Source of the DNA: a virus
Taxonomy: Duplodnaviria > Caudoviricetes
DNA length: 64,000 nt
Virus record (IMG/VR): IMGVR_UViG_3300035208_005226
Location: 12,315 to 76,314 of that record
Reading direction: 5' to 3' (one strand)
Positions 3,096 through 58,954 of this stretch are shown here, piece by piece. Numbering within the stretch: the stretch's first letter is position 1; each line of letters starts with the position of its first letter. The notes beneath the pieces are model-generated. The model saw only the letters and a program-made list of their open reading frames with translations. It was not told the DNA's origin and did no database searches. A program made the position numbers and the translations under genes.

Positions 3096-3115
3096 AATGT
3101 TCACCTAAAAAATAG

Positions 3116-36139: not shown

Positions 36140-37165
36140 ATGACAGATAGATTGGTTGCAATTGCAATAAATTCTACTTCTGATTATGGAGTAACCACCA
36201 TCGGAACTGATATCGCCGGAACTTATTATAAGTTCAGGGGTAGTGCTGATACTGATGGGGTGAACAGGACTCCTATATCAGAAGAGAACATGGATACTAT
36301 GGCACCGGGTGAAATAGACGGTGGTGGATATGCTGTTACCGGTAATATTGATGGAACACTTAGGACTGATCCTGGGACTCTTAATCTGATTAGTTGTTTC
36401 ATGGGGGTTCAAGCTAGTGGAACAACCGCCGGTACTTATTATATGACGAATATCCCGCTTACCACATGCACGTTGCTTGTGTATGATGAGCAGGCAAATG
36501 ATAATGCCGGGGTTGCCACATATTATACCGGTGTCGGGATGACGTCCATGGAAATAAGCTGTAAGGTAGAAGATTACGCCAAGCTTAAGTTTGCATGGAT
36601 TGGAAGACGGGCTATAACAGTTCATGGGGCATTATCGGCTGCACCAACGGAACCAACCTGGACAAGTTTTCCGATGTCAGTATATTATAATGCAGTGTTG
36701 ACATTTGGAGGAACTGTCTTACAGACCAAAGGAATTACTGTTAAGGCTGAGAGAAAATATGCTCAGGATTACAGGTTCTTGGGGTCACAGTTTTTGCAGG
36801 GCTTGTATATTAACGGTATGAGCAACCTTTCAGGAACTATGGATATTGGAGCTGGTGAATGGGATCTCGTAAGTCAGATCATTAATGGGTCCTCAATTGG
36901 CGGTGCTCTCGATTCAGGTCATACGGAGTTTGATGGTAGTCTGGCAAACACGATGGCCTCTGGAGAATTGAAGTTGAAGTTCTATAGGCCGGCTGGTAGC
37001 GGTGCGACAAATGGACTGCTTTTGACTGTTACGATAGCTAAATGTGTTGTTACTGATTTTAACCGGAGTGTCCAGAACCGGAATATGTGGGAAAAGACCG
37101 TGAATTGGAAAGCTGCACTACCTACAAGTGCTGATTTCAGTATTACTGTGGCAGCAGTAACATAA
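36140..37165 (+). CDS. Major tail tube protein
   Basis: 341 aa, Gly/Thr-rich beta pattern (TGNIDG, YTGVGMTSMEIS, SGTMDI); upstream of chaperone and TMP. Confidence 0.75.
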   Translation: MTDRLVAIAINSTSDYGVTTIGTDIAGTYYKFRGSADTDGVNRTPISEENMDTMAPGEIDGGGYAVTGNIDGTLRTDPGTLNLISCFMGVQASGTTAGTYYMTNIPLTTCTLLVYDEQANDNAGVATYYTGVGMTSMEISCKVEDYAKLKFAWIGRRAITVHGALSAAPTEPTWTSFPMSVYYNAVLTFGGTVLQTKGITVKAERKYAQDYRFLGSQFLQGLYINGMSNLSGTMDIGAGEWDLVSQIINGSSIGGALDSGHTEFDGSLANTMASGELKLKFYRPAGSGATNGLLLTVTIAKCVVTDFNRSVQNRNMWEKTVNWKAALPTSADFSITVAAVT

Positions 37166-37212: not shown

Positions 37213-37752
37213 ATGGGTTTTGATAAAGAATCTGGACAGATTATCGAATGCAAAGATAATATTATGAAGGTACTTATTCCATCCACTGGAAACGTATATA
37301 AGATCCAGGAGCCTGTTGGGAATCTTGCACCTGATCATTTTATTTTGATGTCTAAAGGAGTTCCTATGGACATGCAGTTTGAGGATGAGAGAGTTCCAAA
37401 ATATGAATATCCCAGGGATGAAAACGGAGATATTATCGAAGGAGCAGAGAGAATTCCAGTATTTAAGACAAATGAAGATGGGACGTTTAAGATTGATGAA
37501 GATGGAGATCCCATTCCGGTGATGACAAAGGTTAGAACGCCTAGGTGGTCTGATGCAAACTGGAGAAATTTATTCGAGGCATTTAAAGCATGGTGCGAAA
37601 ATATACTGAATAAACCGGGTGCCGTGGTTGTAGAAGGACTACCGTTTGATAAGATGCCTCCTGCTGACATGTTTGGGATTTTTATGGCGCTATACAACAG
37701 GTGTAATAGTGGCGTTACGCCCTTTCGGTTACTTGTCGGTGATGGCGTCTAA
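37213..37752 (+). CDS. Tail assembly chaperone (G-like)
   Basis: Between tail tube and TMP; CCC TTT CGG near 3' end. Confidence 0.65.
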   Translation: MGFDKESGQIIECKDNIMKVLIPSTGNVYKIQEPVGNLAPDHFILMSKGVPMDMQFEDERVPKYEYPRDENGDIIEGAERIPVFKTNEDGTFKIDEDGDPIPVMTKVRTPRWSDANWRNLFEAFKAWCENILNKPGAVVVEGLPFDKMPPADMFGIFMALYNRCNSGVTPFRLLVGDGV

Positions 37753-37939
37753 AGAGAAAGGACAAGAACAGAAACGAGTAAACAGTCTGATGGATAGCCT
37801 CAATGATATAGGTGAGCGATATCATATAAGGCCAACTTCTATTTTTGGATGGGACGATCCTAAAGATTGGTATAGGCGATTGTTGTTTGACCTCTACATA
37901 GTTAATAATACTAGGAAAGAATCAAATTCTAGTAATTAA
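37727..37939 (+). CDS. Tail assembly chaperone extension (T-like), +1 frame
   Basis: Open +1 frame overlapping the chaperone 3' end; ERYHIRPTSIFGW...FD T-like motif; alternative ATG at 37742. Confidence 0.55.
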   Translation, partial: GYLSVMASKEKGQEQKRVNSLMDSLNDIGERYHIRPTSIFGWDDPKDWYRRLLFDLYIVNNTRKESNSSN

Positions 37940-37957: not shown

Positions 37958-40900
37958 ATGGTGGATCCTAAAAAAAATATCAATGATAATGTAAGAGTTA
38001 AGATCTTGCTTGACGCCGCAAAGAAAGGCGATGAGAATCTTGAGCACATTAGAACGCGATATAAGGATGCCATAAAGGAGTATGGGGCCGATGAAGACAT
38101 CATACTTGTTAATCCTAAGCTGGTGAGTGATCGCAAAGAGCTTAATGACATGATGCAACATGTCATGCTGGATAAAACTTTTGCTGTGGATACCGAGGTA
38201 AATCCTAGGGCCGGAAAACCCGGGACTATTCAAATTGCATCTAGATCAGGTGTACATACTATTGCGGTTAATGCATTTAGAGAAAACGAAGCGGATATGA
38301 CATATCTTAGAAATAAGATAGGGTCGTTGTTAAACCGGGATGACGTGCATTCATATTACCATAATAGAATGTTTGATATGGACTTTCTCACCAGGGATGG
38401 GTTTAATCTGGCATTGACAAATTCAGGGGGGGAAGTTACAGCACATGATACAGTTGCATTGGCATCCAGACTTGGGAAGGCAAACTTGCTTGCTAATCCA
38501 GAAATGGGAAATTCTCTGGCATCATTTGTACTGAGATCTTTGGGAAAATATCTGCCTAAGAAGTTGTCTGGGTCTGGATTTGGATTTAACTATAATGTTG
38601 AGACATCCAAAACCAAAGATTTTGATAAGTGGTTTCTTAGGTATGGTGCTGGAGATGCACTAGCACTGTATGAAGTGGTATCTAAGTATTATGGAGAGCA
38701 CAATGATCTTAAGAACCTGAAGAATATTGGAGCATCCAAGGATCAGATTGATTTTATAAATAAGATTGATGAGATAGAGCATGCAAAGAGATCAATGTTT
38801 AGGCCACCGCCTAGTGTTCAGGATTTCATGGAAGGACGGAATATTATAGCAACCAGGGTTAAAAAGGGAAATGATGGGAAGTTATATGTTGAAAGTTATT
38901 TGTCACCGTCTGATGAATCCCAAAATGCAGTGATGAATTACCTAAGCGACAATAATATTTTAGATATTAAAAAAAAGCACGAAACAGGAATATTGGAAAA
39001 GGCAGCAGCAGTAGGAGTAAAACTAAAAAAAGGAGAAATTGCAGAGGAAGTAAATCTAAAAGCAGAAAGAGAAATAGCAAGTTATCTGCATACAAACCAC
39101 GGAATAGACATTTATAAAGCAGTTGCAGATGCATTATCCGGAACTGCAAAGACCGATGTAAAATCCGGGATTAATCCAATTGCAAGGATGTATGCAAAGG
39201 GTGTAGCCGGAAGACTTGGGATGTTTAGATCCAACCGGGTGTATGTATCTGATGCATATCGAAACAAACCTGGGCAGGGCGGATCATATGCTAAATATGC
39301 CAGTGCATACAGCAAGGACAACAAGATTGGAATTGGATATATTCCGGAAATAAGAAGCGGGGATTTTTCAATTGTAAAGGCATTCAGACAGATGTATGAA
39401 GCATCTCCCGAATACCTGATGAAATCTGTGGGGCACTTTGTTAAAGGGGATATAAACAAGGGAAATGTAGAATCTGCAACATCTGACATATTTAATAGGG
39501 TAAAGAGTCTGCCTACCGATATAAACGAGGTAAAGAATTATTTTGGTGCATTGGGAATTTCACCTGATGTTATTGATGCAAACCCGGAGATGTGGATTAG
39601 GGATTATCATAGACATGGCCTTGTGGGAACATGGCTTGGACTTAGTAATGTGGCAAAAGGATTGACTGGAAAGAAAAGTATAGAACGAAATGTGGTTGGT
39701 GCAATTAAACAGGTTGGGTTTGATCCTACAACCGGAGATCCTATTTATGCAAGGAAGTTACAGGAATCGAAGTCTGAAATATCGGAGTCCGGATTAAACT
39801 CGTTGCTTAATGGAGTATATGAATCGTTTGCCGGGATAAAAATAGCAAAACATAGTGTTCCAGGATTTACTCCCGGAAAGTCTGCTGCTGCATTTGGATC
39901 GTTGCTTGGTAGTGGAAGAGCTGTTGAAATTATAACAAAGATGGGATTACCGGAAAGTGTGGCTGCCATACCAGGAAAGTTTAGATTCAGACAGCAATTG
40001 ATGTCATCTGCTGTTAATTATGGTGCGGCATATGAGAACATGGACGAGCGGATGCAATCCGTAAATGCAATCAACACACCCGAAATGAATGAGTTATATG
40101 GGGAAACAGAGCTGCTTAACAAGATGCCTATACGATCCAGGTTTAAAGAAGGAGATGTTGATGAATCACATAGAGAACGGTTGAGATCATTGGGATTTGA
40201 ACCTGAAAAGATTGAAGAACTGGTTGCAAATGGCGGAGAAATATTAAGAGAGGCACTGACATCCCCGGTATTGTATGGAAAAGGAAACGAATGGTGGAAA
40301 CAGTCCAGAATTATTGTTACAGATGATGTAAAGCAGAAGTTTACTGACTTGTGGGAAAATATTGAGAATTATTCGCCTGAAGTTCAGAATAAGATACGAT
40401 CTGCTCTTGCTATAGGAACAAAAGGGCCGTTTAGAGATGCAAACGGACTGGTGCAGGTTGGAGATCTTGATACCAGGATGGTGGGACATAATAAGAATTA
40501 TGAGTTATCCACAGGGTTCTATCAGGGAACTGTAGGTCAGGAAATAACATCTATGCTGACTGATAAGCAGTTTAGACATGAGGCATTTATTGAAAATATA
40601 CCAAAGATGATTCCAGAAATTTATGCAAGCGGCGATAAGGGAATTACACCCGGTGGAAGATCGCAATATATAAAAGACTCCTATGATTTTTTTGCTCAGA
40701 TAGGACTGCTTAAGAGCATTCCGGATAAAAAAGTGGGAATCAAAGCAGCAAAAGGCATCAAAAACACCATATTAACTGAAATGAGTTATAGGAAGGCATA
40801 TGGGAAAAATGTACTTAGTGATGCTGAAGTTCTGAAGATGTCTCGTTTGTTTAATTTAGTGATGTCAAAAAGAGTTGCCAGAGACGAAACTATAATGAGG

Positions 40901-43900
40901 GCAGATCTAGACAAAAGTCTTGATTATATAGGGAATATTAAGAACGAGGTTGGATATAACCCCAATGTATTGCATGGATCTTATAGAAATTATAATGAAG
41001 AAACAGGAATGAGTACCATTGTACCATATCAGACATTATCTACACTCCCGACGATGAGTGAAAAGGAAGCCAGGAAACTGGAAGGAAGTTATATAAACAG
41101 AGTTAAGGAACTGTCTGAAGTAATAAGGCCGAAAGAATTGTTGCAAGTAGAAAAGTTTATTTCTGGAATAGAAAAGGGATATGCCCCAAATGCAACTGAG
41201 TCTGTTAATGCAGCATCAATATATGACACGGTGAAGAAGCTGGGATTGAATGAAGACGATGCATATTCGTTGGTAAATAATGCCACAACTGAGGCTTATG
41301 ATATAGGACAGGCGTTTTCTCCGGAATCAAAAATTCCTGCTACCTTGGCAGTCAGCAGAACGTTATTTCCACCATTAAAAAAGGCAATTGCCTCTGTTAT
41401 TCCAGATGTTGCACCGGTCATTTCAGATACAGGAGTTGGAAGATCTCATTCTCCGCTACTGAACGCAATATTTGATATATCGTCTGAGACTGGAGGACGA
41501 ACTCCATTAATGTCTCACCCCATTGGTATAACCGATCCGGATGTTTTAATGTCTATGCTGGAGTCTGGTGCAATAACGGATAAAGAATATGCAAAGGCTG
41601 TTGTGTTGTCTGCGAAACCAATTACAGATCAGAAAGGAACTAGATGGGAAAAACATATTCCGAGGGCATTTGCAGATATTTCTAAAGTTGATTTCTCCAG
41701 TGGATTTATACGACCGCCTAATGTAGGAGATGAATATATTCAGACACGTGGATCTGGTCCATCTCGTTTATACTACAGTACATTCCGGGGAATGATGGGA
41801 GAAACCTTGTCTGTAATGGCTGAGAATGCAGCACGTAAGAAACAAGATTTGAGAAGGCTCGAGAGCGAACGGGTTTTAGATAAGCTTGCTGGATCTCATT
41901 CCATTCAGGTTGATTACTTGAAAGGACACAAGGTTGCTACCGGTGCAAATGCTGTGATGGAAGAAGGAAAGGTTGGAAATCTTGTTAAGACATATGAGAC
42001 ATATAACAAGGTTTCTGATGCTATAGGAGAGAGACACAGCGATATAATAAAGCCAGGATATGTTCCTAAGAAAACAATATCAAGAAATCGCATACTTGGG
42101 GAATATTCTCCAGAAACAGCAAATGTTAGATATAATAGAGACATTGGACAGATAATTGGAAGCGTATCTGATTATGCTGGAATGGCTAAAGATGTTGGAG
42201 GATTTAAAGATAGCAAGGAGGCATTAAAGAAGGCTCCTGGAATCATATCAAAGTTTTTAAACATATGGGGTCCAAGGAAACCAGACACTTGGAAAAGCAG
42301 TGATGCCAGATTGTTTGCTCCTGGATATTATCCAGAAAATGATGTGTCTGATTTGGTTTCCATAGATTTTTGGATGAACAAAGAGTTGGAGCGGGTATGG
42401 AGTGGAAAGACTCCATTTAGTCTGATGCCGAAGGGAGAGAACGAAGATATAAAAGGGTCTGATATATTTGGACTGGACTTTACCAGGGAAACCACAACCG
42501 AGAGTTCAAAGGACTTTAAGAGAATAAGCAGAGATGTAATGGAGAAATCAATTCTCCAGTCCATTAAGGAATCTGATAACCCGGTTGAACTTATAAATCA
42601 AATGCATAGATCTATTGAAGGATTCAATCAATGGAAGAAAGAAGGGGTTGAGGGAACTTATCCATATATTCCAGATTACTTGGCATTGTCTAAATCACCA
42701 GGTATGAGTTCTGGATTGGGAACTTCGCTATTTGACTGGCTTACAAAAGGCAATACAAAGGAGTTATCTGCTGCATTTTCTGAGAATGAGAAAGGATATG
42801 GTACGTTGTCCAGTATGCTTGAGGAGGTTGCGGAGATACAAGAAAGCGGGATGTTAAATGGAAAAAGGATAGGGAAAGACGCATCCGATTATGATGTGGT
42901 ATCTCACGTAATAAATAAATACAGGACTGGAGAAACCGGAGAAATAAGTCTTGAATATCTTGATGCGGTTAACTTGGTTTCTGGATATAGACCATTAAGA
43001 CCTGAATATGGAATACAACATGTTAATCCATATTATAAGGGAATACCAAGGAAGTTGTCTGAATATAATCCACGCGATTATGGACTTGGGATGAAAAGCG
43101 GGAGATCATCTGTGCTTACTGATCTGTACTCAGATGTCATTGATTACAGTAAGGGTAGAAGTATTGGATTTAGACTGCCTAAATTTGGAAAAGGAACTCC
43201 AAATATAAATGGAATTACATTATCTGGTAAGGCATTTGGATTATCGGTGGTAGGCGATGGCGGACCTGAAATATCAATCTCAGATGATGGGACCATTAGA
43301 ACCCACAATACGGAAGAAGTGGTTAATTTTAGATCTCCTACTACTGTAATACCAAAGAATAGACTTCCACACTTTGCTTTTGGAACCCCAGACTTCAACA
43401 GAAATGACATAATACGGTCTATTGCGGAATCTATTGAAAATAGTTTTGAAGAATATAATGCTCTTGGATCAGATTTATTATCAACAAAGGGAGTCACAAG
43501 GACCACCACACCGTCTGAAATCCAGTCGATAAAAAGTGTGGTGGCGGAACATATGAATTCCGGATTGGCTAAATCCGGGAAGCATCCTGAAAGGGCTGGG
43601 TTGTTTAGGACGGAAGGAAGTGGAATAATCAGTGGTATTGGAAGATTTATGGACTTTGGTAATACTGATTATACGCTTAGTGGTCCTGGTAATGTAAGAA
43701 AAGATATTGGGCGGCATGATATCATGGGACAAGATATATCTGGTAGAATCCAGAGAATGTCGGATGTCACAAATATCACAGATAATAGATTTATACGAAA
43801 TAAAAACCGGGGGATTGCAGATGTATATGAAGATGCCACCATTCCTGGAATTCAAAAAGTAGTAACATCATTGCCTCAGCCTGGTGGAGTCGCACAATCC

Positions 43901-46900
43901 GGAGCAAGATTGTCTGCAACAGAAATTAATAGTCTTAAAGATATGCTGGGGGATTTAAATGCGTCGATGAGAGATCTTGGTAGCGATACTGATTATGGTG
44001 GATTCATTAAGAGTCTTGAAACATCAATTGGGGCAAACAGGGGTATTGATGTAACAAAAGGTGTGGCAGAACAGTTTAAGCTACTTAGTGATCAGCTTAG
44101 GATTATTGTTCCGGAATTGAAGTCGTTTTCTGATGTTGCAAAGATAGAGAATATTGCAAAGGCAAGAAAGGTATCTCCTGAATATCAGGAAGAAATCATG
44201 AAAAAGGGGTACTTTAAGGAAGGCCCTATAAGCAGCATCAGATACATGATGGCAAAGAGGAGAGATCCCGGATTGACTCCGGAAGAATGGAATGCAGATA
44301 GGTTTGAAGCATCATTTTCAGAAAGCAGAGATCAGAGATTAGCTAGGTGGTTAAAGAAGAGGGCTTTGAAGGGGACCGAAGAAACTGAGACATTTGCATT
44401 CCAAGCCAATTATGCATTGGAGTCTCCAGCAGCTAAGTCGGAAATGACAAGGGTGCAGTCAGAGTTCTCTGCATTTGTATCTGAATTGTCTAAGATTGAC
44501 AAAAATATTAAAATAAATACTCAGACGGGGACAAAATTCTCACCGGGCGAAAAGTCAAAACAAGTTGAGAGCGTCTTTGGGGAACAACTTGGGATGAATG
44601 TAGAGGTGAGTAAAGAAGCTCTGAGATTGAAGTTTGGCAAAGATTATAGGAAGATATTACAGGGTATGTTTGGGCCGTCTTTAATTGATCAGCCAGGATA
44701 TATTTCAAATGCAAACCTGGATATTGTGGAAGGCAGGAGAACCACAAGACCTACAGAAGAATCATCTGGATATTTATCTGCATCTTCCACTCTTCAGGGA
44801 TATGGCAGAAAAATGACGGCATTGAGCATGGGTGCAATGGGTACCTACTTTTCAATAACTGGTATCTATAGTGTGATATCTCAAGGCGTTCGTATGGTAA
44901 CCGATTCACTGAAGGATCTTAGTTCTCAGATGAAATCAATTGCCATAATGGATAACTTCAGCAATGGGCTACTTAGATCTAAGGATATAATGGCTACGAT
45001 GGGAATAACCCAGCAGGATTTCATTAATGGGTGGAAAGGCATAACATCTATCCAGGCATCGTTCCAGGTATTTTTGGGATCTATTGCTGCTAAGATGATG
45101 CAGGTAGGAGAAGACGGAACTTCAGCGTTCAAAACCATTGCTGATACACTGATGAAGGCATTTACAGATAAAAGAAGCATAGATGAATTGGTGAGTTCTG
45201 TTAAGACACTGGTTGTGGCGGGTGCAGAATTGCTACCGATGTTTATTGGGTTTGCTAAAACTCTTGCTAATCTGGTTGCTGGAATTGCAAAAAGTCCGTT
45301 TGCTCCACTTATTACTGGATTTACGCTTATTGCGTTTGTAATGCAACCGGTGCTTACACTGATTGCTGTTACACTGGAAGGATTTGCATCATTGCTTACC
45401 CTTATGGCATTCATGGGTCCGGCAGCATCAACCGGAGCACTTGGAATGACACAGTTTGCAGCTGGTACCACAAGTGCAGCTGGTGGTGTAATGGTTCTTA
45501 ATGGGGCATTGGGAACTACACTTGCAATGTTATCAACTGTAGTTGTGGTTGTAGGAGCTGCTGTTGCTGCTTGGCAGTTACTAGGAATGGCTATAAATTT
45601 TGCATCAAATAAAGAGGTTGTTCCTACCCCGGTTGGATTAATTGGGGGTGCACTTGGATTCAATAAGGGTGGATTGGTGGAGTGTTTTGCAGAGGGAGGA
45701 GAAAAAGGAACCGACATCGTTCCCTCAATGCTTACACCCGGGGAGTTTGTAGTTAGGAGAGATTCTGCTAAGAAGTTTGGATATGACAGGCTTGACAAAA
45801 TTAATAAAATGGCAGATGGAGGTGTTGTAGGCGGACTGATGCCATCATCCTCTCCTGTTATGGATTCAGATAACCGGATGAATATAAACAATAAGTTTGG
45901 GTTGTTGACAAATGTGAGTGAGGCAGGAGCCAATGCAAATAAAAATACCGCAAAGACGTTATCTGATGCAAGTGGAGGGAAATATCTTAATGTTAAGTTG
46001 TATGGAGAAGAAGGGCAGATCGGCGGTAAAGGCGATGTAGAAACTGAAGGTGGATATCTAGGAAATCTAATGGATACTCTAGGAAATGCAGCAGATGAAT
46101 TTGCGAAGGGGCTATCTGATACATTTACCCCAAGTGGACTCAAGAATGTAGTAACAACTGGAGCAGCTGGAGCAACGTTGTCTACTCCATTTAATGAACT
46201 TACTAAAAAAGTAAAGGAATGGTGGGATAAAATAGAATGGCCTGATGTCGGAAAATGGATTAAAGAAAGATTTAAGTTTTTGGATGATACAGATCTTGGA
46301 GAAAAATTTAGGGAATTTAAGGAAAGGTTAATTGAGTTGACTACCGGAAAGGAGAGAACCGGTAGAACTGAGAATGTAGACATCGATAGGAATGAAAAGA
46401 TAAAAGGAAGGAAGACACCTGGGGAAGAAAGTCTCGAAAGTAAAACTAATAAAAGGGTTGTAGACTGGTTTAGAGGGGATAAAGGATTAGAAGGCTGGGA
46501 AAAGGTAGATACAGGAACCGAAAAACAACCTAGCAGACCAAAGATGACCTGGTCATATGAGAATGAATATGGGAATGTAGAGGCAGAAAAACCAATTTAT
46601 GAACCAGGAAGAAATGCATTACCAAATCAAATATGGGAGGTAACTCCAGAAGGAGGTATAGGAAAAGGAGTTGAAACACCAGAGAGCGGGTTTAAAACCG
46701 CAAAGCCACCTGTTGGAGTTTCAACTACCCAAGAGATTATTGGTGGTGCTAAAGGAGGTGGTATTCTTGGTGGTATATTAGCTGCTGTGGATGAGATACT
46801 TGTAAAGGGAAAATCTCCGGTAGAGGCAGCACCTACGGTTGGAGTGAGTGCAGCAGCAGGAGCGGGACTTGGAGCTGCAACAGCTGCATTTCCTATTTTG

Positions 46901-47950
46901 GGTCTTCCAGTAGCTATGCTTTCTCATGAGTGGATGGCAAACTTCGGCGCAAATGTAGCAGAAAAAGCAACTGGAGGAACATGGATAGAAGAGAAAAAAG
47001 ACAAACAGGGCAATGTTATTACTCCTGGATATATGGAGGGAGGAAATAAAGAACTTGGTGCGGCATCTGGCATTGCAGGTGCCACAATAAATGATGTCAC
47101 TGGTGGAGCAGTGACCGGTGGTGCAATAGGATCTGTGGTTCCAGTTGTTGGAACTGGCATTGGAGCACTTATAGGTGCAATTGCTGGCATAGTTAGTGGC
47201 GGGGTTCTTGATATTCAGGATATAAATAAACAGGTTTCGTCTGGCAAAACCAATATTGAGGGCAATTATGGTGTAATTGGATCGGTTTCAAAGTATGCAA
47301 CTAATTTATCCATGAATCCAACTGCCGCAAATGGTGAAGCAAACCCGATGTATTATGATGCAACAAAGGCACAAAATATGCTGAGTGGAACGCTTGATTC
47401 CATAAAAACAAGTATATTGAGCGGGCTTGGAGATGCATCCGCCACACTTGGTACTATATGGGGTTCAGTTTATAATATGGCAATATCAGGATTTGGAGAT
47501 GCAGCATCGGTGCTTGGAGGACTGTGGACCTGGATATCAGATGCGGTTAAGTCGGCTATTGGTATTGGAGGCAGTGTAGTAAGTACGGTGTCAAATGCTG
47601 CAACTGGTATAGCAAGCGGTGTAACTGGAACTGCAAGTGGGATTGTAAAGGCAATTACTGGTGCTGCTGATGGAGGACTGATAACTTCAACGGGATTGAT
47701 TAATGCTCATGCTGGAGAAGTTATAGGTCCAATTGATAAAGTATCGAGTATTTTATCTGGTGCATCAAGCAGCAGCAATACAAATTCTACATCGTCTGTT
47801 TCATCATCTGGTGGTAATAATATCTCAATAACAATTCCAATAACTATAGGAAGTGCATCATCGTCCACAGTTAATGATATCAAGAGCGAACTTGAATATT
47901 GGTTACCACGGCTGCTCAAACAGTATGACATAAAAGGAATTAGCTTATGA
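37958..47950 (+). CDS. Giant tape-measure-like protein (3330 aa) with N-terminal DEDDy 3'-5' exonuclease
   Basis: TMP position. C-terminal hydrophobic Ala/Gly segments and FAEGG..GTDIVPSMLTPGEFVV and ADGG..HAGEV motifs. N-terminal AVDTE / HNRMFD / HDT / YGAGDA. Confidence 0.85.
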   Translation: MVDPKKNINDNVRVKILLDAAKKGDENLEHIRTRYKDAIKEYGADEDIILVNPKLVSDRKELNDMMQHVMLDKTFAVDTEVNPRAGKPGTIQIASRSGVHTIAVNAFRENEADMTYLRNKIGSLLNRDDVHSYYHNRMFDMDFLTRDGFNLALTNSGGEVTAHDTVALASRLGKANLLANPEMGNSLASFVLRSLGKYLPKKLSGSGFGFNYNVETSKTKDFDKWFLRYGAGDALALYEVVSKYYGEHNDLKNLKNIGASKDQIDFINKIDEIEHAKRSMFRPPPSVQDFMEGRNIIATRVKKGNDGKLYVESYLSPSDESQNAVMNYLSDNNILDIKKKHETGILEKAAAVGVKLKKGEIAEEVNLKAEREIASYLHTNHGIDIYKAVADALSGTAKTDVKSGINPIARMYAKGVAGRLGMFRSNRVYVSDAYRNKPGQGGSYAKYASAYSKDNKIGIGYIPEIRSGDFSIVKAFRQMYEASPEYLMKSVGHFVKGDINKGNVESATSDIFNRVKSLPTDINEVKNYFGALGISPDVIDANPEMWIRDYHRHGLVGTWLGLSNVAKGLTGKKSIERNVVGAIKQVGFDPTTGDPIYARKLQESKSEISESGLNSLLNGVYESFAGIKIAKHSVPGFTPGKSAAAFGSLLGSGRAVEIITKMGLPESVAAIPGKFRFRQQLMSSAVNYGAAYENMDERMQSVNAINTPEMNELYGETELLNKMPIRSRFKEGDVDESHRERLRSLGFEPEKIEELVANGGEILREALTSPVLYGKGNEWWKQSRIIVTDDVKQKFTDLWENIENYSPEVQNKIRSALAIGTKGPFRDANGLVQVGDLDTRMVGHNKNYELSTGFYQGTVGQEITSMLTDKQFRHEAFIENIPKMIPEIYASGDKGITPGGRSQYIKDSYDFFAQIGLLKSIPDKKVGIKAAKGIKNTILTEMSYRKAYGKNVLSDAEVLKMSRLFNLVMSKRVARDETIMRADLDKSLDYIGNIKNEVGYNPNVLHGSYRNYNEETGMSTIVPYQTLSTLPTMSEKEARKLEGSYINRVKELSEVIRPKELLQVEKFISGIEKGYAPNATESVNAASIYDTVKKLGLNEDDAYSLVNNATTEAYDIGQAFSPESKIPATLAVSRTLFPPLKKAIASVIPDVAPVISDTGVGRSHSPLLNAIFDISSETGGRTPLMSHPIGITDPDVLMSMLESGAITDKEYAKAVVLSAKPITDQKGTRWEKHIPRAFADISKVDFSSGFIRPPNVGDEYIQTRGSGPSRLYYSTFRGMMGETLSVMAENAARKKQDLRRLESERVLDKLAGSHSIQVDYLKGHKVATGANAVMEEGKVGNLVKTYETYNKVSDAIGERHSDIIKPGYVPKKTISRNRILGEYSPETANVRYNRDIGQIIGSVSDYAGMAKDVGGFKDSKEALKKAPGIISKFLNIWGPRKPDTWKSSDARLFAPGYYPENDVSDLVSIDFWMNKELERVWSGKTPFSLMPKGENEDIKGSDIFGLDFTRETTTESSKDFKRISRDVMEKSILQSIKESDNPVELINQMHRSIEGFNQWKKEGVEGTYPYIPDYLALSKSPGMSSGLGTSLFDWLTKGNTKELSAAFSENEKGYGTLSSMLEEVAEIQESGMLNGKRIGKDASDYDVVSHVINKYRTGETGEISLEYLDAVNLVSGYRPLRPEYGIQHVNPYYKGIPRKLSEYNPRDYGLGMKSGRSSVLTDLYSDVIDYSKGRSIGFRLPKFGKGTPNINGITLSGKAFGLSVVGDGGPEISISDDGTIRTHNTEEVVNFRSPTTVIPKNRLPHFAFGTPDFNRNDIIRSIAESIENSFEEYNALGSDLLSTKGVTRTTTPSEIQSIKSVVAEHMNSGLAKSGKHPERAGLFRTEGSGIISGIGRFMDFGNTDYTLSGPGNVRKDIGRHDIMGQDISGRIQRMSDVTNITDNRFIRNKNRGIADVYEDATIPGIQKVVTSLPQPGGVAQSGARLSATEINSLKDMLGDLNASMRDLGSDTDYGGFIKSLETSIGANRGIDVTKGVAEQFKLLSDQLRIIVPELKSFSDVAKIENIAKARKVSPEYQEEIMKKGYFKEGPISSIRYMMAKRRDPGLTPEEWNADRFEASFSESRDQRLARWLKKRALKGTEETETFAFQANYALESPAAKSEMTRVQSEFSAFVSELSKIDKNIKINTQTGTKFSPGEKSKQVESVFGEQLGMNVEVSKEALRLKFGKDYRKILQGMFGPSLIDQPGYISNANLDIVEGRRTTRPTEESSGYLSASSTLQGYGRKMTALSMGAMGTYFSITGIYSVISQGVRMVTDSLKDLSSQMKSIAIMDNFSNGLLRSKDIMATMGITQQDFINGWKGITSIQASFQVFLGSIAAKMMQVGEDGTSAFKTIADTLMKAFTDKRSIDELVSSVKTLVVAGAELLPMFIGFAKTLANLVAGIAKSPFAPLITGFTLIAFVMQPVLTLIAVTLEGFASLLTLMAFMGPAASTGALGMTQFAAGTTSAAGGVMVLNGALGTTLAMLSTVVVVVGAAVAAWQLLGMAINFASNKEVVPTPVGLIGGALGFNKGGLVECFAEGGEKGTDIVPSMLTPGEFVVRRDSAKKFGYDRLDKINKMADGGVVGGLMPSSSPVMDSDNRMNINNKFGLLTNVSEAGANANKNTAKTLSDASGGKYLNVKLYGEEGQIGGKGDVETEGGYLGNLMDTLGNAADEFAKGLSDTFTPSGLKNVVTTGAAGATLSTPFNELTKKVKEWWDKIEWPDVGKWIKERFKFLDDTDLGEKFREFKERLIELTTGKERTGRTENVDIDRNEKIKGRKTPGEESLESKTNKRVVDWFRGDKGLEGWEKVDTGTEKQPSRPKMTWSYENEYGNVEAEKPIYEPGRNALPNQIWEVTPEGGIGKGVETPESGFKTAKPPVGVSTTQEIIGGAKGGGILGGILAAVDEILVKGKSPVEAAPTVGVSAAAGAGLGAATAAFPILGLPVAMLSHEWMANFGANVAEKATGGTWIEEKKDKQGNVITPGYMEGGNKELGAASGIAGATINDVTGGAVTGGAIGSVVPVVGTGIGALIGAIAGIVSGGVLDIQDINKQVSSGKTNIEGNYGVIGSVSKYATNLSMNPTAANGEANPMYYDATKAQNMLSGTLDSIKTSILSGLGDASATLGTIWGSVYNMAISGFGDAASVLGGLWTWISDAVKSAIGIGGSVVSTVSNAATGIASGVTGTASGIVKAITGAADGGLITSTGLINAHAGEVIGPIDKVSSILSGASSSSNTNSTSSVSSSGGNNISITIPITIGSASSSTVNDIKSELEYWLPRLLKQYDIKGISL

Positions 47951-48453
47951 CCGAACTTGCTGAATATGCTCCATTGCAGTTTGCAGAAAGCACATTGAAT
48001 ATAACTATGGAATATAATGGAGATCATGGAAGAAAGGGATATGCTCCCGGATCAACTGGATTTACCCATAATATTTTTGCTAAAAAACACAATAACACCA
48101 GAGAACTCAACGTAGATTCTATTCCTGGTGGAGCAATACCAGTGTCTAATTATTATGGGAAAAAAGTCCAGGTAGTAACACTAGAGGGATATTTTCCTTA
48201 TAGATACCCAGATGATTTCTGGAATGTTTTTATGGCTGCATTGTCTCCATATCGGTATCTTTGCGTTCCTAAGAATATTTTTCTATGTGGTAGTGTAATT
48301 CAGGTTAGTAAAAATGTAACATTCCCAGATTTACCGGTTGGATCATACTGGTATATAAAACGCTACACATATAAACGGGGTGTTGATATGCCAGAAGTAG
48401 CGGGATTTAACTTGGTTTTATGGAGGTGGTATAACCTTGACATCTTTGAGTAA
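47947..48453 (+). CDS. Distal tail protein (putative)
   Basis: 168 aa immediately after TMP; IPGG...G..VQVVTLEG pattern. Confidence 0.5.
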   Translation: MTELAEYAPLQFAESTLNITMEYNGDHGRKGYAPGSTGFTHNIFAKKHNNTRELNVDSIPGGAIPVSNYYGKKVQVVTLEGYFPYRYPDDFWNVFMAALSPYRYLCVPKNIFLCGSVIQVSKNVTFPDLPVGSYWYIKRYTYKRGVDMPEVAGFNLVLWRWYNLDIFE

Positions 48454-50233
48454 TACATATGCATATTTCAATCTCATGAGATCAGAATATGGGAGCGATG
48501 GATCTCTTATATGGTCCACAATATATGAGCTCCCGCCGGCATCATTAAGCAGCATAGAGATTGTTACAGACTCGTATGAGGAAAAAACAGAATATGGAGC
48601 AGAACCAGATATAGTTCCAATGGGAATTAATTCGTGTTCTGCCACAATGTCTGGTCAGTTTATGCGAAAAGTAGCATCTGGTAATAAACTAAATGCCTCG
48701 TATCCATTCCCGGCAGGCAATCTATCTCCCGTAATAGTAAGTTCAGATGATTTGTTTCCATTGTTTGTGGATATAAGCGGGAATACTCATGTGTTTGCGA
48801 TCCAAAGAACTGCTACCGGAACTGGAGGGAGAGATCTTGGAAGCGGAATATGGAGAATAGATAAATTTGTTTTTGATAGAGATTCTAATAATGCCGGGAT
48901 ATTTAGGTTTAACATGGTGCTTGGGTATGTATGGACTAATCCGCTTGAGCAACAGATATTTTATGGAAATACTGGGGTCAATAAGAAACAGACATGCAAA
49001 TTCCAGGCTACAATAACTCCAAGTGATAATGACCAAGATGAATTAAATGCAGTTGAAATATTTAATACTAAGATTACTAAGTCGCTTTATGTAAAGAATA
49101 CAGCTAAGTTCGATTACACTGTTAACATATTTAAAAATTCTTTTGTCTTGATTGGAAAGATGGGAGCAACCAGTGATTCAGAATCTAAAGTCTTTCTCGG
49201 AATAGTTACGGATTGCGAAAACAATAGGGATGGCACGTTTACTGTGTCGTGTAAAGAAGTTTGTGACCTGTTATACCGTGGTGTGTGTAGTCAAGGGGGA
49301 CTGTTGGGTGCATTATTTCCAAAGGTTATAATTCCAAACCCTGATGCATATACCGCAACAGACTTGACTATAGATCAGATACTAAATAAGATTCTCCAAT
49401 ATTATAAGGCTAAAACCGGATATGAGAGATTTGTTCCCGGATATATAGGAAATGATAGAACGCACGGACTCGGTGGATCTATTTATCTACCTGGTCATGA
49501 TTCAGATACAGAATCTCCAATTAAAATCAGTACTCAGGTTATGTCATGTATGAGCGTAGGAACAGCAGTAACTAATTTTCTGTATCAGCAGTGCGGGTTT
49601 AATATATGGTATAACTATAATACAAATGGAACGATAGAATATGGATACATAAGAGATAGAATAACCATCGACATTACAAAGGAGGTTATTGAAAAGAGTG
49701 AATTAATCTCAACAAATAACGAAGAAACTGTTCCGGATGGCGTTATGGTATGGGATTCAGCAGGAGAATATAACGGAAGTTATGGGGATATAGACATAAA
49801 TAAACATGTATTGGTTTATGTTATGACCGATAGTAAATTTGATGGGGCGTTAAACGCAATTGCAGAAAGAATATTTAAATTGTATGATGGAATTGATTTG
49901 TCTAGTTATAGCGTGAGATTTCCGGCTGGAACTGTAAGGTTTAAAGAGGGAGACTATTTTGATGGGCTAGGCGACGAAACAGTATCCGATAGAATTATGG
50001 AATACAGGGAAGGAACCGATGTAGATCCATTGGAAGATCCAACTGATGCAGTATGGCAAATTAAGGAACTCACTATAACTGAACAAAGTACCACGGTAAC
50101 TGTTGGAAGCTCGTATGTATCGGTTCTCGACATATATAGAGGGGTACTTAATAAGAATAAAGATGGTATTCCGGCACCAGTTGAAAATAAGGTTCTTCAG
50201 TCAAAACCGATTGTGGTAGGAAGAGCAACATGA
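48437..50233 (+). CDS. Tail tip/baseplate hub protein (putative)
   Basis: 598 aa; VFLGIVTD...FTVSCKE, CGFNIW, IEYGY, FKEGD hub-like pattern. Confidence 0.55.
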   Translation: MTSLSNTYAYFNLMRSEYGSDGSLIWSTIYELPPASLSSIEIVTDSYEEKTEYGAEPDIVPMGINSCSATMSGQFMRKVASGNKLNASYPFPAGNLSPVIVSSDDLFPLFVDISGNTHVFAIQRTATGTGGRDLGSGIWRIDKFVFDRDSNNAGIFRFNMVLGYVWTNPLEQQIFYGNTGVNKKQTCKFQATITPSDNDQDELNAVEIFNTKITKSLYVKNTAKFDYTVNIFKNSFVLIGKMGATSDSESKVFLGIVTDCENNRDGTFTVSCKEVCDLLYRGVCSQGGLLGALFPKVIIPNPDAYTATDLTIDQILNKILQYYKAKTGYERFVPGYIGNDRTHGLGGSIYLPGHDSDTESPIKISTQVMSCMSVGTAVTNFLYQQCGFNIWYNYNTNGTIEYGYIRDRITIDITKEVIEKSELISTNNEETVPDGVMVWDSAGEYNGSYGDIDINKHVLVYVMTDSKFDGALNAIAERIFKLYDGIDLSSYSVRFPAGTVRFKEGDYFDGLGDETVSDRIMEYREGTDVDPLEDPTDAVWQIKELTITEQSTTVTVGSSYVSVLDIYRGVLNKNKDGIPAPVENKVLQSKPIVVGRAT

Positions 50234-51972
50234 GTAATAATGAAGTGGTGTCACTGGATAAGTTTTTTATTGATCCGCTGTGTAATGGAACAATTACCAT
50301 TTCTTCGAGTGTTGCAGAGGTTGTAGATACAGTTGATTATCCGGAGTCAAATAATACTGCTGCTGAGTGTAGTGCGTCATATGGAACCGCAATAACAATA
50401 ACTCCCGGGGGATTGTTTGAGTTTGACTTTGATAGCACAACCACATCATATGGGGATAATTTGGGCATTCTTAAATATATTCCAGCATTTTATTCATCCG
50501 GATCCATCGTGATTAATGCAATTGTCCAGGAATCTGATGATGAGGACGGAGCCGTTGATTTAACATTTGATGCTATGATGTATGTAGCGGATGCTGATAA
50601 ACCAACCTGGTATCCATATAGCTTAGAGTTGGTTACAGATCCGGATGATGTCACTCTTGAACGAATGCCATACCCGATGGACGGAATGATAACATCACCA
50701 AACGATAATACCAAACATGACAGCATTGGCGAAAATACAAATCTCACACACACGTTTACCATTGGTTCCTGGGTTGGTATGAGACCAATGGTAGAGTCGT
50801 TTAATACAGATGGGATTAAAAGAGGACATCTACCTCCATTGTCGTTTAAAGTTACGTGTAAGAATAACTTGGAGTCTTCTGTTACATTTTCAAGTCTTAA
50901 AGTCTCAATTTCATTTAATTATGCATCAGACGGAACCTTGATGAATCTGGGAAGTACTGCGGTTGCTGATTTCTGTAAGTTGTATTGTGATCCTAAATTT
51001 ATTAATAATGATGAGAAAACCGATCCATCGGACGGCGAAGATAGATATCTTTGGGCAATTGCAGATGGATATTCAAAAGGAGAAATTCTTCATGTATTTG
51101 GATACTATAGGCAGACTCAGAGTGACAGTACTACAAAGTTAAAATGCGTATATCTGAAGAAAGTAGCTGCAACAGAGGGAACAAACCACGCTGCATTTGT
51201 TTATAAATCTGACATAGCGGTTAATCCGGTGGATTTTTCTGATAACTATCGCATGGTGTTTAGGGGATTTTACTCCGATGAATATGCATATGTGGTAACT
51301 CCAAAAGTCATTTGTCAAAGTGATAAGTTTAAAGACATAAGCGTAACTTGTATGAAAGAAGTAATATCCGATGATGAGGAAGCAGACACGTCATACATTG
51401 AATGCTCTCCATCTGATGTCGATGCTATTTTCATGATTGTGGTTAAACTACGGGATGATGATATAGATGAGATTGCAATCGTCGGAACAAGACTTGGGGT
51501 AACATCTGACGACTTTAATTCCGCTATCAAAACGATAAAGTTTTATGATGTTGATACCGCTTTTGTGCCATATACGGAAAATGAAGATGGAACGAATACT
51601 GCGATTCAAGTGTTGAGATCCGACATAAATAAAATATTTTATGATACGCTGGCAAAGAGCTTTGAAGAGGATGTAATTTTAGTTTCTAGTTTTAATGATG
51701 TAATTCCATATGTTGAACTCAAGATAAACTCATATGCCGATTATATATTCCCGTTATATGACGGCAAGTCTATTACATTTAATGAGAGTTTATCCAGGTG
51801 TACTGATGGTGTAAGAAGTAGAGAGTTGTTTTATTTTACTAAGAAGACATCCGGTATATTTAATACGATTACTTTGCAGGATTCAGATAAGCGATATACT
51901 GCTACGCTACAAATAACATATGGCAAGTACAAAGGTATGATTGTTCATAAAGATAGAGATATAACAACTTAG
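50230..51972 (+). CDS. Acidic tail protein
   Basis: 580 aa in tail-tip region. Confidence 0.5.
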   Translation: MSNNEVVSLDKFFIDPLCNGTITISSSVAEVVDTVDYPESNNTAAECSASYGTAITITPGGLFEFDFDSTTTSYGDNLGILKYIPAFYSSGSIVINAIVQESDDEDGAVDLTFDAMMYVADADKPTWYPYSLELVTDPDDVTLERMPYPMDGMITSPNDNTKHDSIGENTNLTHTFTIGSWVGMRPMVESFNTDGIKRGHLPPLSFKVTCKNNLESSVTFSSLKVSISFNYASDGTLMNLGSTAVADFCKLYCDPKFINNDEKTDPSDGEDRYLWAIADGYSKGEILHVFGYYRQTQSDSTTKLKCVYLKKVAATEGTNHAAFVYKSDIAVNPVDFSDNYRMVFRGFYSDEYAYVVTPKVICQSDKFKDISVTCMKEVISDDEEADTSYIECSPSDVDAIFMIVVKLRDDDIDEIAIVGTRLGVTSDDFNSAIKTIKFYDVDTAFVPYTENEDGTNTAIQVLRSDINKIFYDTLAKSFEEDVILVSSFNDVIPYVELKINSYADYIFPLYDGKSITFNESLSRCTDGVRSRELFYFTKKTSGIFNTITLQDSDKRYTATLQITYGKYKGMIVHKDRDITT

Positions 51973-57568: not shown

Positions 57569-58954
57569 GTGTTGATTATGGTGTATGATGATTGGTTATA
57601 CAATAAAAGTCACGTTATAACATCAGCAAGCACTTTAACTGATTATCAAGTTAAATTAACAGTTTACTATGGTAGTGGAACCGATAGCGGATCATCTGTT
57701 TATCTTAATTCTCATTGTAATGTAGATTTTAGTGATATTAGATTTACAAATAGTTCAGGCGCAGCACTTCCCTATTGGATTGAAAGTTATACAAGTGGTG
57801 TTAGTGCAGTTGTTTGGGTAAAGATTGATTCAATTACTACGTCTACTACGATTTATGTTTATTATGGAAATGGTAGTGCGGTAAGTGAGAGTAATGGAGA
57901 TAGTGTTTTTGAATTCTTTGATGATTTTGAAGGGTCAACATTATCTAAATGGACCGGCGATACTACATATGGAACCATTTCAAATGGTATCCTATCTTAC
58001 ATGTATAATACCACGTCAGAAACGTGGAAATATATATTTTCAAATGTTACATTATCCACATCTACTACCCCCTACGCCATTAGAACCCGATGCTCTATAG
58101 TTGCGTCAACACCATGGGCTTTATATCAAATGTGTGGATTTCAATTATCAGACACAATAGGAACTGGGCGAGCAATATTAACATCAATTGGATCATATCC
58201 ACTTACTGTTTTAACAGAATCTCAAGGATTTGGGGCTGCAAATATATATACGACAGGTTACAAGATATTTGAAATTCAATACAATCCAAGTGTAAATACT
58301 AAATTTTATGTAGATGGTTCATTAGTTGTAACTCATACATGCAATTCACCGGCAAATACCAAAGTTAGTATAGGATCATGTAATGGTGGAACACATACCA
58401 ACGATTGGATCGTAGTAAGGAAATATGCGGCAACAGAACCCACTCATTCAACTTGGGGAACTGAAACCTTTAACATTGATGTGTACATTGCATCGGAGAC
58501 TATTGCATTGACGGATATTCCATGTGGCGAAGTTGATACCGGATCTGCGTTTGAAATCATTACGATATCAGACACAGCAACGAGATTACTCCACACAAGA
58601 ATACTACACGAAATAATTACTGTGTCTGATTCCATAATCAATCCGATTATATACCTTGCACAGGAAGTAATTGAATTGATCGACACCACAATACGAGGAT
58701 ATGTCGTAACTGAACTAATCAAGGTGTTTAACGGCAATGACATGGATAGAGCAGCAGTTGATGAGTATGGCGGGAGCTGTGGTAAGCGACTGGATGAATA
58801 TGGGAATTTGATTGGTGGTAAGATAAAGGCAACCGGACAGATGATTGTAAGAGCACTGCACTACAGGACAAATACCAATTGCCAGGTTATAGAAGATGTG
58901 GCTATATGTAGTGAATTAATCAAGGTGTCAAGTAATGGAGACGAGCAGGAATAA
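57569..58954 (+). CDS. DUF2341-domain tail protein
   Basis: DYQVKLT...DFSDIRFT...LPYWIE...VWVKI...IYVYYGN...VFEFFDDFEG is the classic DUF2341 pattern. Confidence 0.85.
   Translation: MLIMVYDDWLYNKSHVITSASTLTDYQVKLTVYYGSGTDSGSSVYLNSHCNVDFSDIRFTNSSGAALPYWIESYTSGVSAVVWVKIDSITTSTTIYVYYGNGSAVSESNGDSVFEFFDDFEGSTLSKWTGDTTYGTISNGILSYMYNTTSETWKYIFSNVTLSTSTTPYAIRTRCSIVASTPWALYQMCGFQLSDTIGTGRAILTSIGSYPLTVLTESQGFGAANIYTTGYKIFEIQYNPSVNTKFYVDGSLVVTHTCNSPANTKVSIGSCNGGTHTNDWIVVRKYAATEPTHSTWGTETFNIDVYIASETIALTDIPCGEVDTGSAFEIITISDTATRLLHTRILHEIITVSDSIINPIIYLAQEVIELIDTTIRGYVVTELIKVFNGNDMDRAAVDEYGGSCGKRLDEYGNLIGGKIKATGQMIVRALHYRTNTNCQVIEDVAICSELIKVSSNGDEQE

Follow-up and report, generated by a model that had tools for sequence, protein, structure and literature searches.

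A giant phage tape-measure protein with an N-terminal DEDDy exonuclease domain

RESULTS

The tape-measure protein is a composite of three parts

An uncultivated, complete phage of the siphovirus type (~76.2 kb) carries a giant tape-measure protein (TMP) gene, whose 3330-aa product is a composite of three parts: an exonuclease domain of the DEDDy type, a lineage-specific middle region and a canonical TMP module. The gene occupies positions 37958..47950 of the window (the whole 64,000-nucleotide stretch of viral DNA that was analysed; all features described here are on its plus strand) and is one uninterrupted ORF, with no internal stop in 9993 nt. The first-pass annotation had placed it at 37958-44800; the start is correct, but the gene continues to 47950, and position 44800 (approximately residue 2281) falls at the beginning of the conserved tape-measure core.

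We found eight full-length metagenomic relatives of the giant TMP (3349-3910 aa), which come from different samples, are 26-43% identical and have the same uninterrupted architecture and synteny as the window, while sequence similarity to isolate phages was not detectable. It is thus extremely improbable that an assembly or gene-calling error joined two genes, one for an exonuclease and one for a tape measure, even though the source contig belongs to a metagenome bin with mixed composition and the protein collection holds a record of a 1482-aa internal fragment, spanning residues 556-2037. In both of two sequencing runs (word depths 357 and 59), a single contig spans the ORF, with neither variants nor joints. 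Fusion of two genes during assembly, which the first-pass annotation had itself named as a refutation of its reading, is excluded because both the architecture and the synteny are common to the eight relatives.

Gene order and the C-terminal module identify a tape-measure protein

The giant ORF occupies the tape-measure slot, and we identify it as a TMP, in agreement with the first-pass annotation, from synteny, a shifted-frame chaperone extension, a match to phrog_58, motifs common to TMPs and hydrophobic segments. The order in all relatives is tail tube gene, chaperone, giant ORF and then three further genes. The tube protein gene (341 aa; 36140..37165), which keeps its position in all relatives, matches PF18906 Phage_tube_2 (E=1.3e-12) and phrog_290 (E=7e-14). 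In every relative, the tube gene and the giant ORF directly flank the gene for a G-like tail assembly chaperone (179 aa; 37213..37752 in the window), which had no family match in Pfam or PHROG. The 3' end of the chaperone gene is overlapped by a stop-to-stop ORF in the +1-shifted frame (37634..37939), which ends 19 nt upstream of the giant ORF and is likely the 'T' part of a frameshift product of the G/GT type; in a distant relative, the equivalent ORF in the +1 frame (L006:725-919) encodes a protein 46% identical to this one (E=2e-20), and similar small ORFs are called in two relatives. Downstream of the giant ORF, genes for proteins of 168, 598 and 580 aa (47947..51972) have equal-sized counterparts in every relative; they found no family match in Pfam or PHROG, and we presume that their products are distal tail or tip proteins.

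Judged by its sequence, the last ~1080 residues (approximately 2250-3330) look like a canonical TMP module, composed of a core, membrane-type segments, TMP motifs and a Gly-rich end. The core (residues 2251-2560; 44708..45637) is the best-conserved region of the protein among the nine relatives, with an identity of 0.55 and 22% invariant columns. Hydrophobic segments (19-mers) are found at residues 2415-2549, inside the core, and at residues 2969-2989 and 3054-3086. The motif GG-x-KGTDxVPxMLTPGEFV (residues 2574-2620; 45677..45817) is 55-57% identical to a motif that is repeated fourfold in P0007, a protein of 2722 aa that carries PF10145, and it also matches the annotated TMP of Gordonia phage GMA4. 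The Gly-rich C-terminal part (residues 2641-3309; 45878..47884) matches phrog_58, 'tail length tape measure protein', with E=9.1e-7, while the Pfam TMP families gave no direct match to the giant ORF.

The N-terminus carries an apparently intact DEDDy exonuclease domain

Based on sequence motifs, residues ~52-245 (38111..38692) are a diverged, apparently intact and catalytically complete exonuclease domain of the DEDDy (PolA/RNase D/EXD2) type. The motifs noticed in the first-pass annotation begin exactly where it had put them: A76VDTE80 at 38183, HNRMFD (H135-D140) at 38360, HDT at 38444 and YGAGDA at 38642. ExoI is D78-T-E80 (38189..38197), ExoII is N136-R-M-F-D140 (38363..38377), H163-D164-T165 follows (38444..38452), and ExoIII is Y229-G-A-G-D233 (38642..38656). 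Both the order and the spacing agree with ExoI (DxE), ExoII (Nx2[F/Y]D) and ExoIII (Yx3D), and the presence of Tyr rather than His in ExoIII places the domain in the 'y' subgroup. D78, E80, N136, D140, H163, D164, Y229 and D233, as well as G230 and A231 of ExoIII, are invariant in the nine aligned sequences, whose exonuclease domains are 31-48% identical, and the residue preceding D140, at the aromatic position of ExoII, is F, W or H. With a mean pairwise identity of 0.48 among the nine relatives, the domain is second in conservation only to the TMP core.

The match of the window protein to PF01612 (DNA_pol_A_exo1) covers residues 55-242 and profile positions 3-166 of 173, but its hmmscan score of 16.5 bits (E=0.0076) is lower than the Pfam gathering threshold of 23.6 bits. 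In a six-frame search of the genome, the score was 23.0 bits, or 23.7 with neighbouring in-frame matches. Half of the six relatives searched also match this family (best E=2.2e-5), and NCBIfam models of PolA-type exonucleases and polymerases match the same stretch; like those to Pfam, these matches are weak.

Structural comparison leads to the same fold. The Foldseek matches listed for the domain are DEDDy exonucleases or family-A polymerases, with Nibbler the best (E=2e-6) and EXD2, Rrp6, RNase D and the exonuclease domains of Pol I also among the top matches. In VIA-align, which is independent of Foldseek, the best 36 chains are all DnaQ-like, EXD2 being first (Z 12.4, rmsd 2.0, 102 aa); for residues 50-173, the superpositions on EXD2, Nibbler, Rrp6 and RNase D have Z of 9.5-12.4. 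The β1-β2-β3-αA-β4-αB core overlays solved DEDDy structures over ~100 residues (rmsd 1.7-2.8 Å, Z 8-12), although identity to these structures is merely 13-20%. The fold matches rest on residues ~50-173, the only part of the domain that the confident model covers; residues 153-260 have pLDDT <50, and the ExoIII motif within them sits in a predicted helix (225-245) of low pLDDT. The motif match is more than chance, because PF01612, NCBIfam, two fold searches and the invariance of the catalytic residues in nine sequences all agree, and the first-pass annotation's reading of the N-terminus as a DEDDy domain is supported, the DnaQ fold being seen for residues ~50-173.

The domain shares ExoI-III, including the ExoIII Tyr, with other PF01612 DEDDy domains (EXD2, Nibbler, Rrp6, RNase D and the Pol I/Klenow 3'-5' exonuclease). 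Unlike these, it is never free-standing or joined to a polymerase or HRDC domain, and all its occurrences are N-terminal in giant TMPs: among 1.84 billion representative proteins, a HMMER search recovered it only within proteins of 3349-3791 aa, in just five representative clusters.

A domain of this fold need not be a nuclease. It might serve as a plug, either structural or binding 3' ends in a metal-dependent manner, that keeps hold of the leading end of the genome or caps the TMP; alternatively, proteolysis during tail maturation might remove it, so that it would never be delivered. The TMPs of some phages do undergo proteolytic processing. Non-catalytic DEDD-fold domains (Exd1 and the exonuclease-like domains of polymerases theta and nu) are among the fold matches, and the C-terminal half of the domain gave no confident model. 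Inactive DEDD relatives typically lack the catalytic residues, however, whereas here the five catalytic residues do not vary, and neither do N136 and H163/D164, among nine sequences with identity down to 31%, and we regard a non-nuclease role as quite unlikely.

The middle region may be ruler or cargo

Residues 290-2250 (38825..44707) form a lineage-specific region in which searches of Pfam, PHROG, NCBIfam, the PDB, Foldseek and the Atlas found nothing; no shorter or stand-alone homologues were found, and tblastn gave no phage match. The AF2 model of residues 291-1480 (mean pLDDT 41, 54% helix, 3% strand) had no Foldseek match; it suggests, at low confidence, mostly short helices, and as a model it neither proves globular enzymes nor rules against an extended ruler. 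Within the region is a conserved block (residues 640-1000; 39875..40957) with a mean pairwise identity of 0.44, in which 43 of the 360 columns are invariant and for which stand-alone homologues were likewise not found. Residues ~880-980 of this block are the only stretch of the 291-1480 model that reaches a pLDDT of 58-80.

The first-pass annotation had argued that 3330 residues would imply an implausible tail of ~500 nm, and hence that most of the protein was probably globular cargo. This argument is not supported: Thermus phages P23-45 and P74-26 have tails of >800 nm with a TMP of 5002 aa (PMC10770324, PMC9022992), and two canonical TMPs reach 2311 and 2722 aa. We give a little under an even chance to the view that all 3330 residues are a length ruler for a tail of ~400-500 nm, with the middle an extended helical tape and the exonuclease the sole addition. 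The model of residues 291-1480 is mainly helical and has no compact β-containing domain, no enzymatic family matches the middle region, and all relatives keep their total length within the range given above. Against this view, a mean pLDDT of 41 makes the secondary structure of the model unreliable, and the middle is richer in Pro (4.3%) and aromatic residues (8.1%) than two canonical giant TMPs and has fewer long runs free of Pro and Gly (10% of residues versus 17-21%). The 640-1000 block, moreover, resembles a folded functional domain more than a tape, because its 43 invariant residues are often polar or aromatic.

The same observations lend some weight to the opposite view, which is that of the first-pass annotation and to which we give roughly one chance in three, that the middle ~2000 residues are further ejected cargo, with at least one unrecognised enzyme or host-manipulating domain, and that the protein is polyvalent-like. 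The middle is nearer to globular proteins in composition, the conserved block has invariant D, R, K and Y residues at 770-975, and the P23-45 TMP hides an enzyme of 1200 aa that has no similarity detectable by sequence. Family, PDB and fold searches nevertheless gave no match for any part of the middle, stand-alone homologues were not found, and the predicted structure is nearly all short helices and coil. The metal-binding DxDxD (DFDGD) signature of the P23-45-type RNA polymerase is absent from the entire window TMP, and the nine relatives show no aligned or conserved copy of it. The label 'polyvalent protein', used in the first-pass annotation, lacks justification: polyvalent proteins have several recognisable enzymatic domains, whereas in this protein the exonuclease is the only one.

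DISCUSSION

TMPs have long been regarded as passive rulers, some of which, such as T5 pb2 and that of mycobacteriophage TM4, have embedded cell-wall hydrolase domains. By analogy, these resemble the window TMP in having an enzymatic module within the TMP that would be delivered by ejection, as we propose here; the hydrolase modules target envelope peptidoglycan, however, whereas a nucleic-acid enzyme would need to reach the cytoplasm. Podoviruses too eject giant proteins (N4 vRNAP, crAss-like cargo), and these, like the polyvalent proteins, are large, delivered by the virion and equipped with nucleic-acid enzymes, but are packaged in the capsid and not in the tail lumen. An N-terminal exonuclease would be a type of enzyme cargo new to TMPs, which are normally shot into the host before the DNA. 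The precedent is gp96 of Thermus phage P23-45 (Chaban et al. 2024, PMC10770324), a TMP of 5002 aa with an active virion RNA polymerase as its N-terminal part. Both are giant siphovirus TMPs (3330 versus 5002 aa) with a nucleic-acid enzyme at the N-terminus and membrane and TMP modules at the C-terminus; in both the enzyme is barely or not detectable by sequence, and each is proposed to work on the incoming genome at the TMP pore, ahead of the expression of phage genes. They differ in the enzyme, which is a ~200-aa DEDDy 3'-5' exonuclease in the window TMP and a two-barrel RNA polymerase in gp96, and in that activity and virion presence have been shown for gp96, while the window TMP is known from its sequence.

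We consider it reasonably probable that the protein as a whole is a TMP with an N-terminal DEDDy exonuclease, delivered ahead of the DNA and acting on entry; virion incorporation, ejection, the orientation of the N-terminus, catalytic activity and substrate are what we infer for it. Going by other TMPs, including that of P23-45, the protein would be loaded into the tail lumen with the assistance of the G/GT-type chaperones. At infection it would be expelled before the DNA, and the hydrophobic C-terminal module would form a conduit through the envelope. In other siphophages the N-terminus of the TMP is directed to the head; by this analogy, the exonuclease is assumed to be head-proximal, beside the leading DNA end, and would thus leave last, arriving on the cytoplasmic side as a pre-made nuclease ahead of any phage gene expression. 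There it would remove 3' nucleotides, most likely from the ends of the entering genome, and such trimming might, for example, expose a terminal redundancy for circularisation or clear a 3' block; small host nucleic acids may be an alternative substrate. A proofreading role in the phage's own replication is argued against by the separate family-B polymerase of this phage, which has an exonuclease domain of its own. What speaks against delivery of a TMP-borne exonuclease is that it is not obvious how a folded domain of ~200 aa, in at least three copies, would fit in a tail lumen of ~4 nm (PMC9022992).

A more ambitious proposal, which we think rather unlikely, is that the exonuclease and the 640-1000 block make up one nucleic-acid machine, assembled beforehand, delivered by the virion and placed where the TMP pore opens into the cytoplasm. 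This machine would either process incoming genome ends, an as yet undescribed entry step, or destroy nucleic acids of the host defence (guide RNAs, signalling oligonucleotides) before expression of phage genes begins. If true, this would be the first nuclease-type counter-defence or genome-processing cargo sent through the tail tape measure.

Because the exonuclease domain is very diverged and so rarely represented, it is useful for mapping the limits of the DEDDy fold. The clade also raises the questions of how genome ends are processed on entry, whether injected nucleases act against host defence nucleic acids, and how a folded enzyme is stored in or above a 4-nm lumen. The P23-45 RNA polymerase-TMP fusion, described in 2024, established that TMPs are able to deliver nucleic-acid enzymes; the exonuclease-TMP clade would add an independent second case, with another enzyme class, and would point to the TMP N-terminus as a general site for proteins that have to meet the genome on entry.

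A predicted DEDDy exonuclease domain at the N-terminus of a giant tail protein

The window contains an uninterrupted ORF (37958..47950, + strand) of 3330 amino acids, which the first-pass annotation had read as a tape-measure protein that carries an intact DEDDy exonuclease. The motif coordinates in that reading are exact, and all of them lie within an intact ORF: AVDTE at nt 38183 (A76), HNRMFD at 38360 (H135), HDT at 38444 and YGAGDA at 38642 (Y229). The order and spacing of these motifs are those of DEDDy ExoI (DxE), ExoII (Nx2[F/Y]D) and ExoIII (Yx3D).

Taken alone, sequence matches provide a weak assignment of this domain. The Pfam profile PF01612 (DNA_pol_A_exo1) aligns over nearly its full length to residues 55-242 with 16.5 bits (E=0.0076), under its cut-off of 23.6 bits; the exonuclease stretch scores 23 bits in a six-frame search of the genome, and the profile matches three of six relatives (best E=2.2e-5). 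NCBIfam models of the PolA-type ‘bifunctional 3'-5' exonuclease/DNA polymerase’ also match the region, with the best E value (9.5e-7) in a relative. PDB sequence searches returned no match, either with the domain alone or with a whole-protein profile of six sequences, and an HMM of the domain matched no ORF in the assembly except the giant ORF itself. When the domain profile was compared by hhalign with the exonuclease domain of the PolA encoded in the bin, ExoI alone was aligned (probability 0.3), a comparison that is too weak given its single-sequence template.

The strongest argument that this domain is an exonuclease comes from its conservation across diverged relatives. The exonuclease domains of nine relatives have a mean identity of 48% and a minimum of 31%, and none of the nine varies at D78, E80, N136, D140, H163, D164, Y229 or D233. 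Within the giant protein, the domain is second in conservation only to the tape-measure core.

The predicted structure is consistent with a DnaQ-like fold for the larger part of the domain. A model of the region built from a seven-sequence alignment was poor overall (mean pLDDT 49.6) and confident at residues 52-150 (pLDDT 64-91), with the topology beta1-beta2-beta3-alphaA-beta4-alphaB. In a Foldseek search of the PDB, the matches listed were all family-A polymerases or DEDDy exonuclease domains, including Nibbler (E=2e-6), EXD2, Rrp6, RNase D, apicoplast Pol and Pol I. VIA-align, which is independent of Foldseek and covered 48,161 representative chains, placed EXD2 first (Z 12.4, rmsd 2.0 A over 102 residues), followed by Nibbler (Z 11.8), Rrp6 (Z 11.4) and RNase D (Z 9.5); the best 36 chains were all DnaQ-like nucleases, and DEDDy dinucleases such as diDNase were among the fold matches. 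The C-terminal third of the domain, which includes ExoIII, has low model confidence. Thus, both fold searches support the predicted DEDDy fold, but because the C-terminal third lacks a confident model, we consider it established for only about two-thirds of the domain.

The exonuclease and tape-measure regions belong to one gene in a small clade

The first-pass annotation had allowed that an assembly error might have fused two separate genes. We can exclude such a fusion, as relatives from different metagenomes keep the single ORF. Word-based searches and exhaustive searches with HMMER identified eight full-length relatives (3349-3910 aa, 26-43% identical) in different metagenomes, and among 1.84 billion representatives the N-terminal exonuclease domain was found solely in these giant proteins. 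All relatives viewed have a single ORF and the same gene order, six at loci with DNA and a seventh by gene table only. Similarly, when JGI metagenomes were scanned with the tape-measure core, every match belonged to the same clade and had a full-length ORF and the exonuclease motifs, and no version of the giant protein that lacks the exonuclease was found. The whole gene is also present in one piece, with no variants or joints, in contigs of two runs labelled landfill and groundwater (word depths 357 and 59); these contigs are not independent evidence, because they are possibly the source of this same DNA. Wastewater runs contain only small shares of the gene.

So far, the finding is confined to a small uncultivated clade. 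In 50,697 isolate phage records, neither megablast with the gene nor tblastn with the middle region and the exonuclease domain gave a match. No relatives of the exonuclease domain came up when GTDB genomes and IMG/VR were scanned by pattern, the IMG/VR scan yielded none of the tape-measure core, and no RNA dataset was listed as containing the giant gene. A separate record, P0012, is a 1482-aa protein from a 40,953-bp contig that matches an internal part of the giant protein (residues 556-2037, window ~39623-44068) except for two substitutions, M1334L and R1848S; its first residue is encoded by a GTG Val codon, and it stops short of E2038. This record may represent a near-identical strain with an interrupted copy, or an ORF divided by gene calling.

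The C-terminal region resembles canonical tape-measure proteins

The tape-measure call is borne out by gene order, by a chaperone pair, and by profile and motif matches. The genes run from the terminase (514 aa, phrog_17415; PF27249 in relatives) through a presumed portal and head genes to the tail tube (PF18906 Phage_tube_2, phrog_290), which lies directly before a 179-aa chaperone, the giant ORF, and genes of 168, 598 and 580 aa. A +1 ORF (window 37634-37939, + strand) overlaps the 3' end of the chaperone gene and terminates 19 nt short of the giant gene; the product shares 46% identity (E=2e-20) with that of the matching shifted-frame ORF in a distant relative. A G/GT-type chaperone pair is a hallmark ahead of tape-measure genes, and the chaperone with its conserved +1-frame extension is probably such a pair. 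The frame of the extension is +1 in the window and two relatives, not the usual -1.

Within the protein itself, residues 2641-3309 match phrog_58, ‘tail length tape measure protein’ (E=9e-7), residues 2251-2560 form the most conserved block, and there are hydrophobic segments at residues 2415-2549, 2969-2989 and 3054-3086. The motif KGTDxVPxMLTPGEFV (residues 2574-2620) occurs in four copies in a 2722-aa PF10145 protein (P0007) and also matches the annotated tape-measure protein of Gordonia phage GMA4. By these sequence features, the C-terminal ~1080 residues appear to behave like a canonical tape-measure protein.

In a relative (L007:1-2547), the terminase large subunit has 892+ aa and includes an intein with a LAGLIDADG homing endonuclease (PF14890, PF14528), which is missing from the 514-aa terminase of the window. 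In the tail-fibre region, a window gene (57569-58954, + strand) matches DUF2341 (E=7e-26), and genes of relatives (L002:26527-27798, L006:19129-20097 and L004:28575-30050) encode Mtd_N and PKD domains. The target protein of diversity-generating retroelements has the Mtd_N fold, and the DUF2341, Mtd_N and PKD domains suggest that the receptor-binding proteins of this clade are variable.

The middle region is compatible with a ruler or with cargo

The first-pass annotation had taken ~2000 residues of the protein to be probable globular cargo, on the argument that a protein of this length would otherwise imply an implausible tail of ~500 nm. The literature does not support the tail-length argument: tails of the Thermus phages P23-45 and P74-26 exceed 800 nm (PMC9022992). 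Residues 290-2250 had no match in Pfam, PHROGs, NCBIfam, PDB sequences or a phage tblastn search; ESM Atlas scores (0.77-0.83) are leads only and were counted as no match. No shorter or stand-alone homologues of the region were found, and there was no internal duplication by self-BLAST or by hhalign of three motif-bearing windows (best E=0.049). The AF2 model of residues 291-1480 has a mean pLDDT of 41, with 54% of residues in helices (55 of them, all short), 3% in strands and 43% in coil, and Foldseek matched it only to generic helical repeats (E>0.01).

The composition of the middle region is intermediate: it has 4.3% Pro, 8.1% aromatic residues and 10% of residues in Pro/Gly-free runs of >=30, compared to 2.5-3.3%, 4.4-6.0% and 17-21% for two canonical giant tape-measure proteins (P0007 and P0008). 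A conserved block spans residues 640-1000 and contains 43 invariant positions, with invariant D, R, K, Y and W clustered between residues 770 and 975, which hints at a folded functional domain. The middle region may be either a ruler or cargo.

The phage genome lies in a mixed bin

The window covers positions 12315-76314 of the contig C44 (76,314 bp, 38.8% GC). The two ends of C44 share an exact direct overlap of 127 bp, so the contig represents a complete phage genome of ~76.2 kb, either circular or circularly permuted. Binning placed C44 in a 6.2-Mb, 64%-GC bacterial assembly, of which it is not necessarily a part. The main contigs of this assembly have 68-70% GC, and it also includes further contigs of low GC (C200, 340 kb; C137, 145 kb; C226, 102 kb; C242, 97 kb). 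In such a mixed bin, the high-GC bacterium does not have to be the phage's host; the only SSU rRNA of the bin sits on another contig than C44. ARAGORN found no tRNA in the window. An archaeal host was considered and set aside: a 75-aa ORF ~3.8 kb before the window start (L011:8284-8511, - strand, identical to C44:8284-8511) has a weak match to the histone-fold family PF00808 CBFD_NFYB_HMF (E=0.0016, 19.1 bits, under the 21.4-bit cut-off), and the bin has no archaeal ribosomal protein L15e.

A possible role for the exonuclease in genome entry

The phage encodes a separate family-B DNA polymerase (window 2-2062, - strand, running off the 5' edge; PF00136, PF03104, PF10108), near genes for an AAA_24 protein (2071-2985) and a thymidylate-synthase-like protein (14753-15532). 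Because this polymerase carries its own exonuclease domain, the domain on the tape measure is not the replicative proofreader. In other siphophages, the tape-measure protein exits the tail before the DNA, its hydrophobic C-terminal part forms a conduit, and its N-terminus is head-proximal, beside the leading DNA end. By analogy, a ready-made predicted 3'-5' exonuclease would reach the cytoplasmic face along with the leading DNA end. Processing of the genome 3' ends seems the most economical role, for instance by uncovering complementary 5' tails so that a terminally redundant genome can circularise, or by removing a 3' block. Degradation of small host nucleic acids would be a less likely, though more novel, role than 3'-end processing.

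The closest precedent for such an arrangement is P23-45. Its tape-measure protein has 5002 residues, of which the N-terminal ~1200 were shown to form an active virion RNA polymerase, and membrane and peptidase domains follow (Chaban et al. 2024, PMC10770324). This polymerase is proposed to sit at the tape-measure pore and to transcribe the genome during entry (PMC10770324). Both proteins have a nucleic-acid enzyme at the N-terminus of the tape measure, and in both a folded domain would have to be accommodated within or above a lumen of ~4 nm, but the enzymes are of different classes. A P23-45-type RNA polymerase was rejected for the giant ORF, which does not belong to that family because it has no conserved DxDxD motif. 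The top-ranked full-text literature matches included no report of a tape measure fused to an exonuclease, nuclease, DEDD, DnaQ or RNase D domain. Overall, the first-pass observation is confirmed and its interpretation is partly supported. Enzyme-bearing tape measures are already known, and this protein would add a predicted exonuclease to them.
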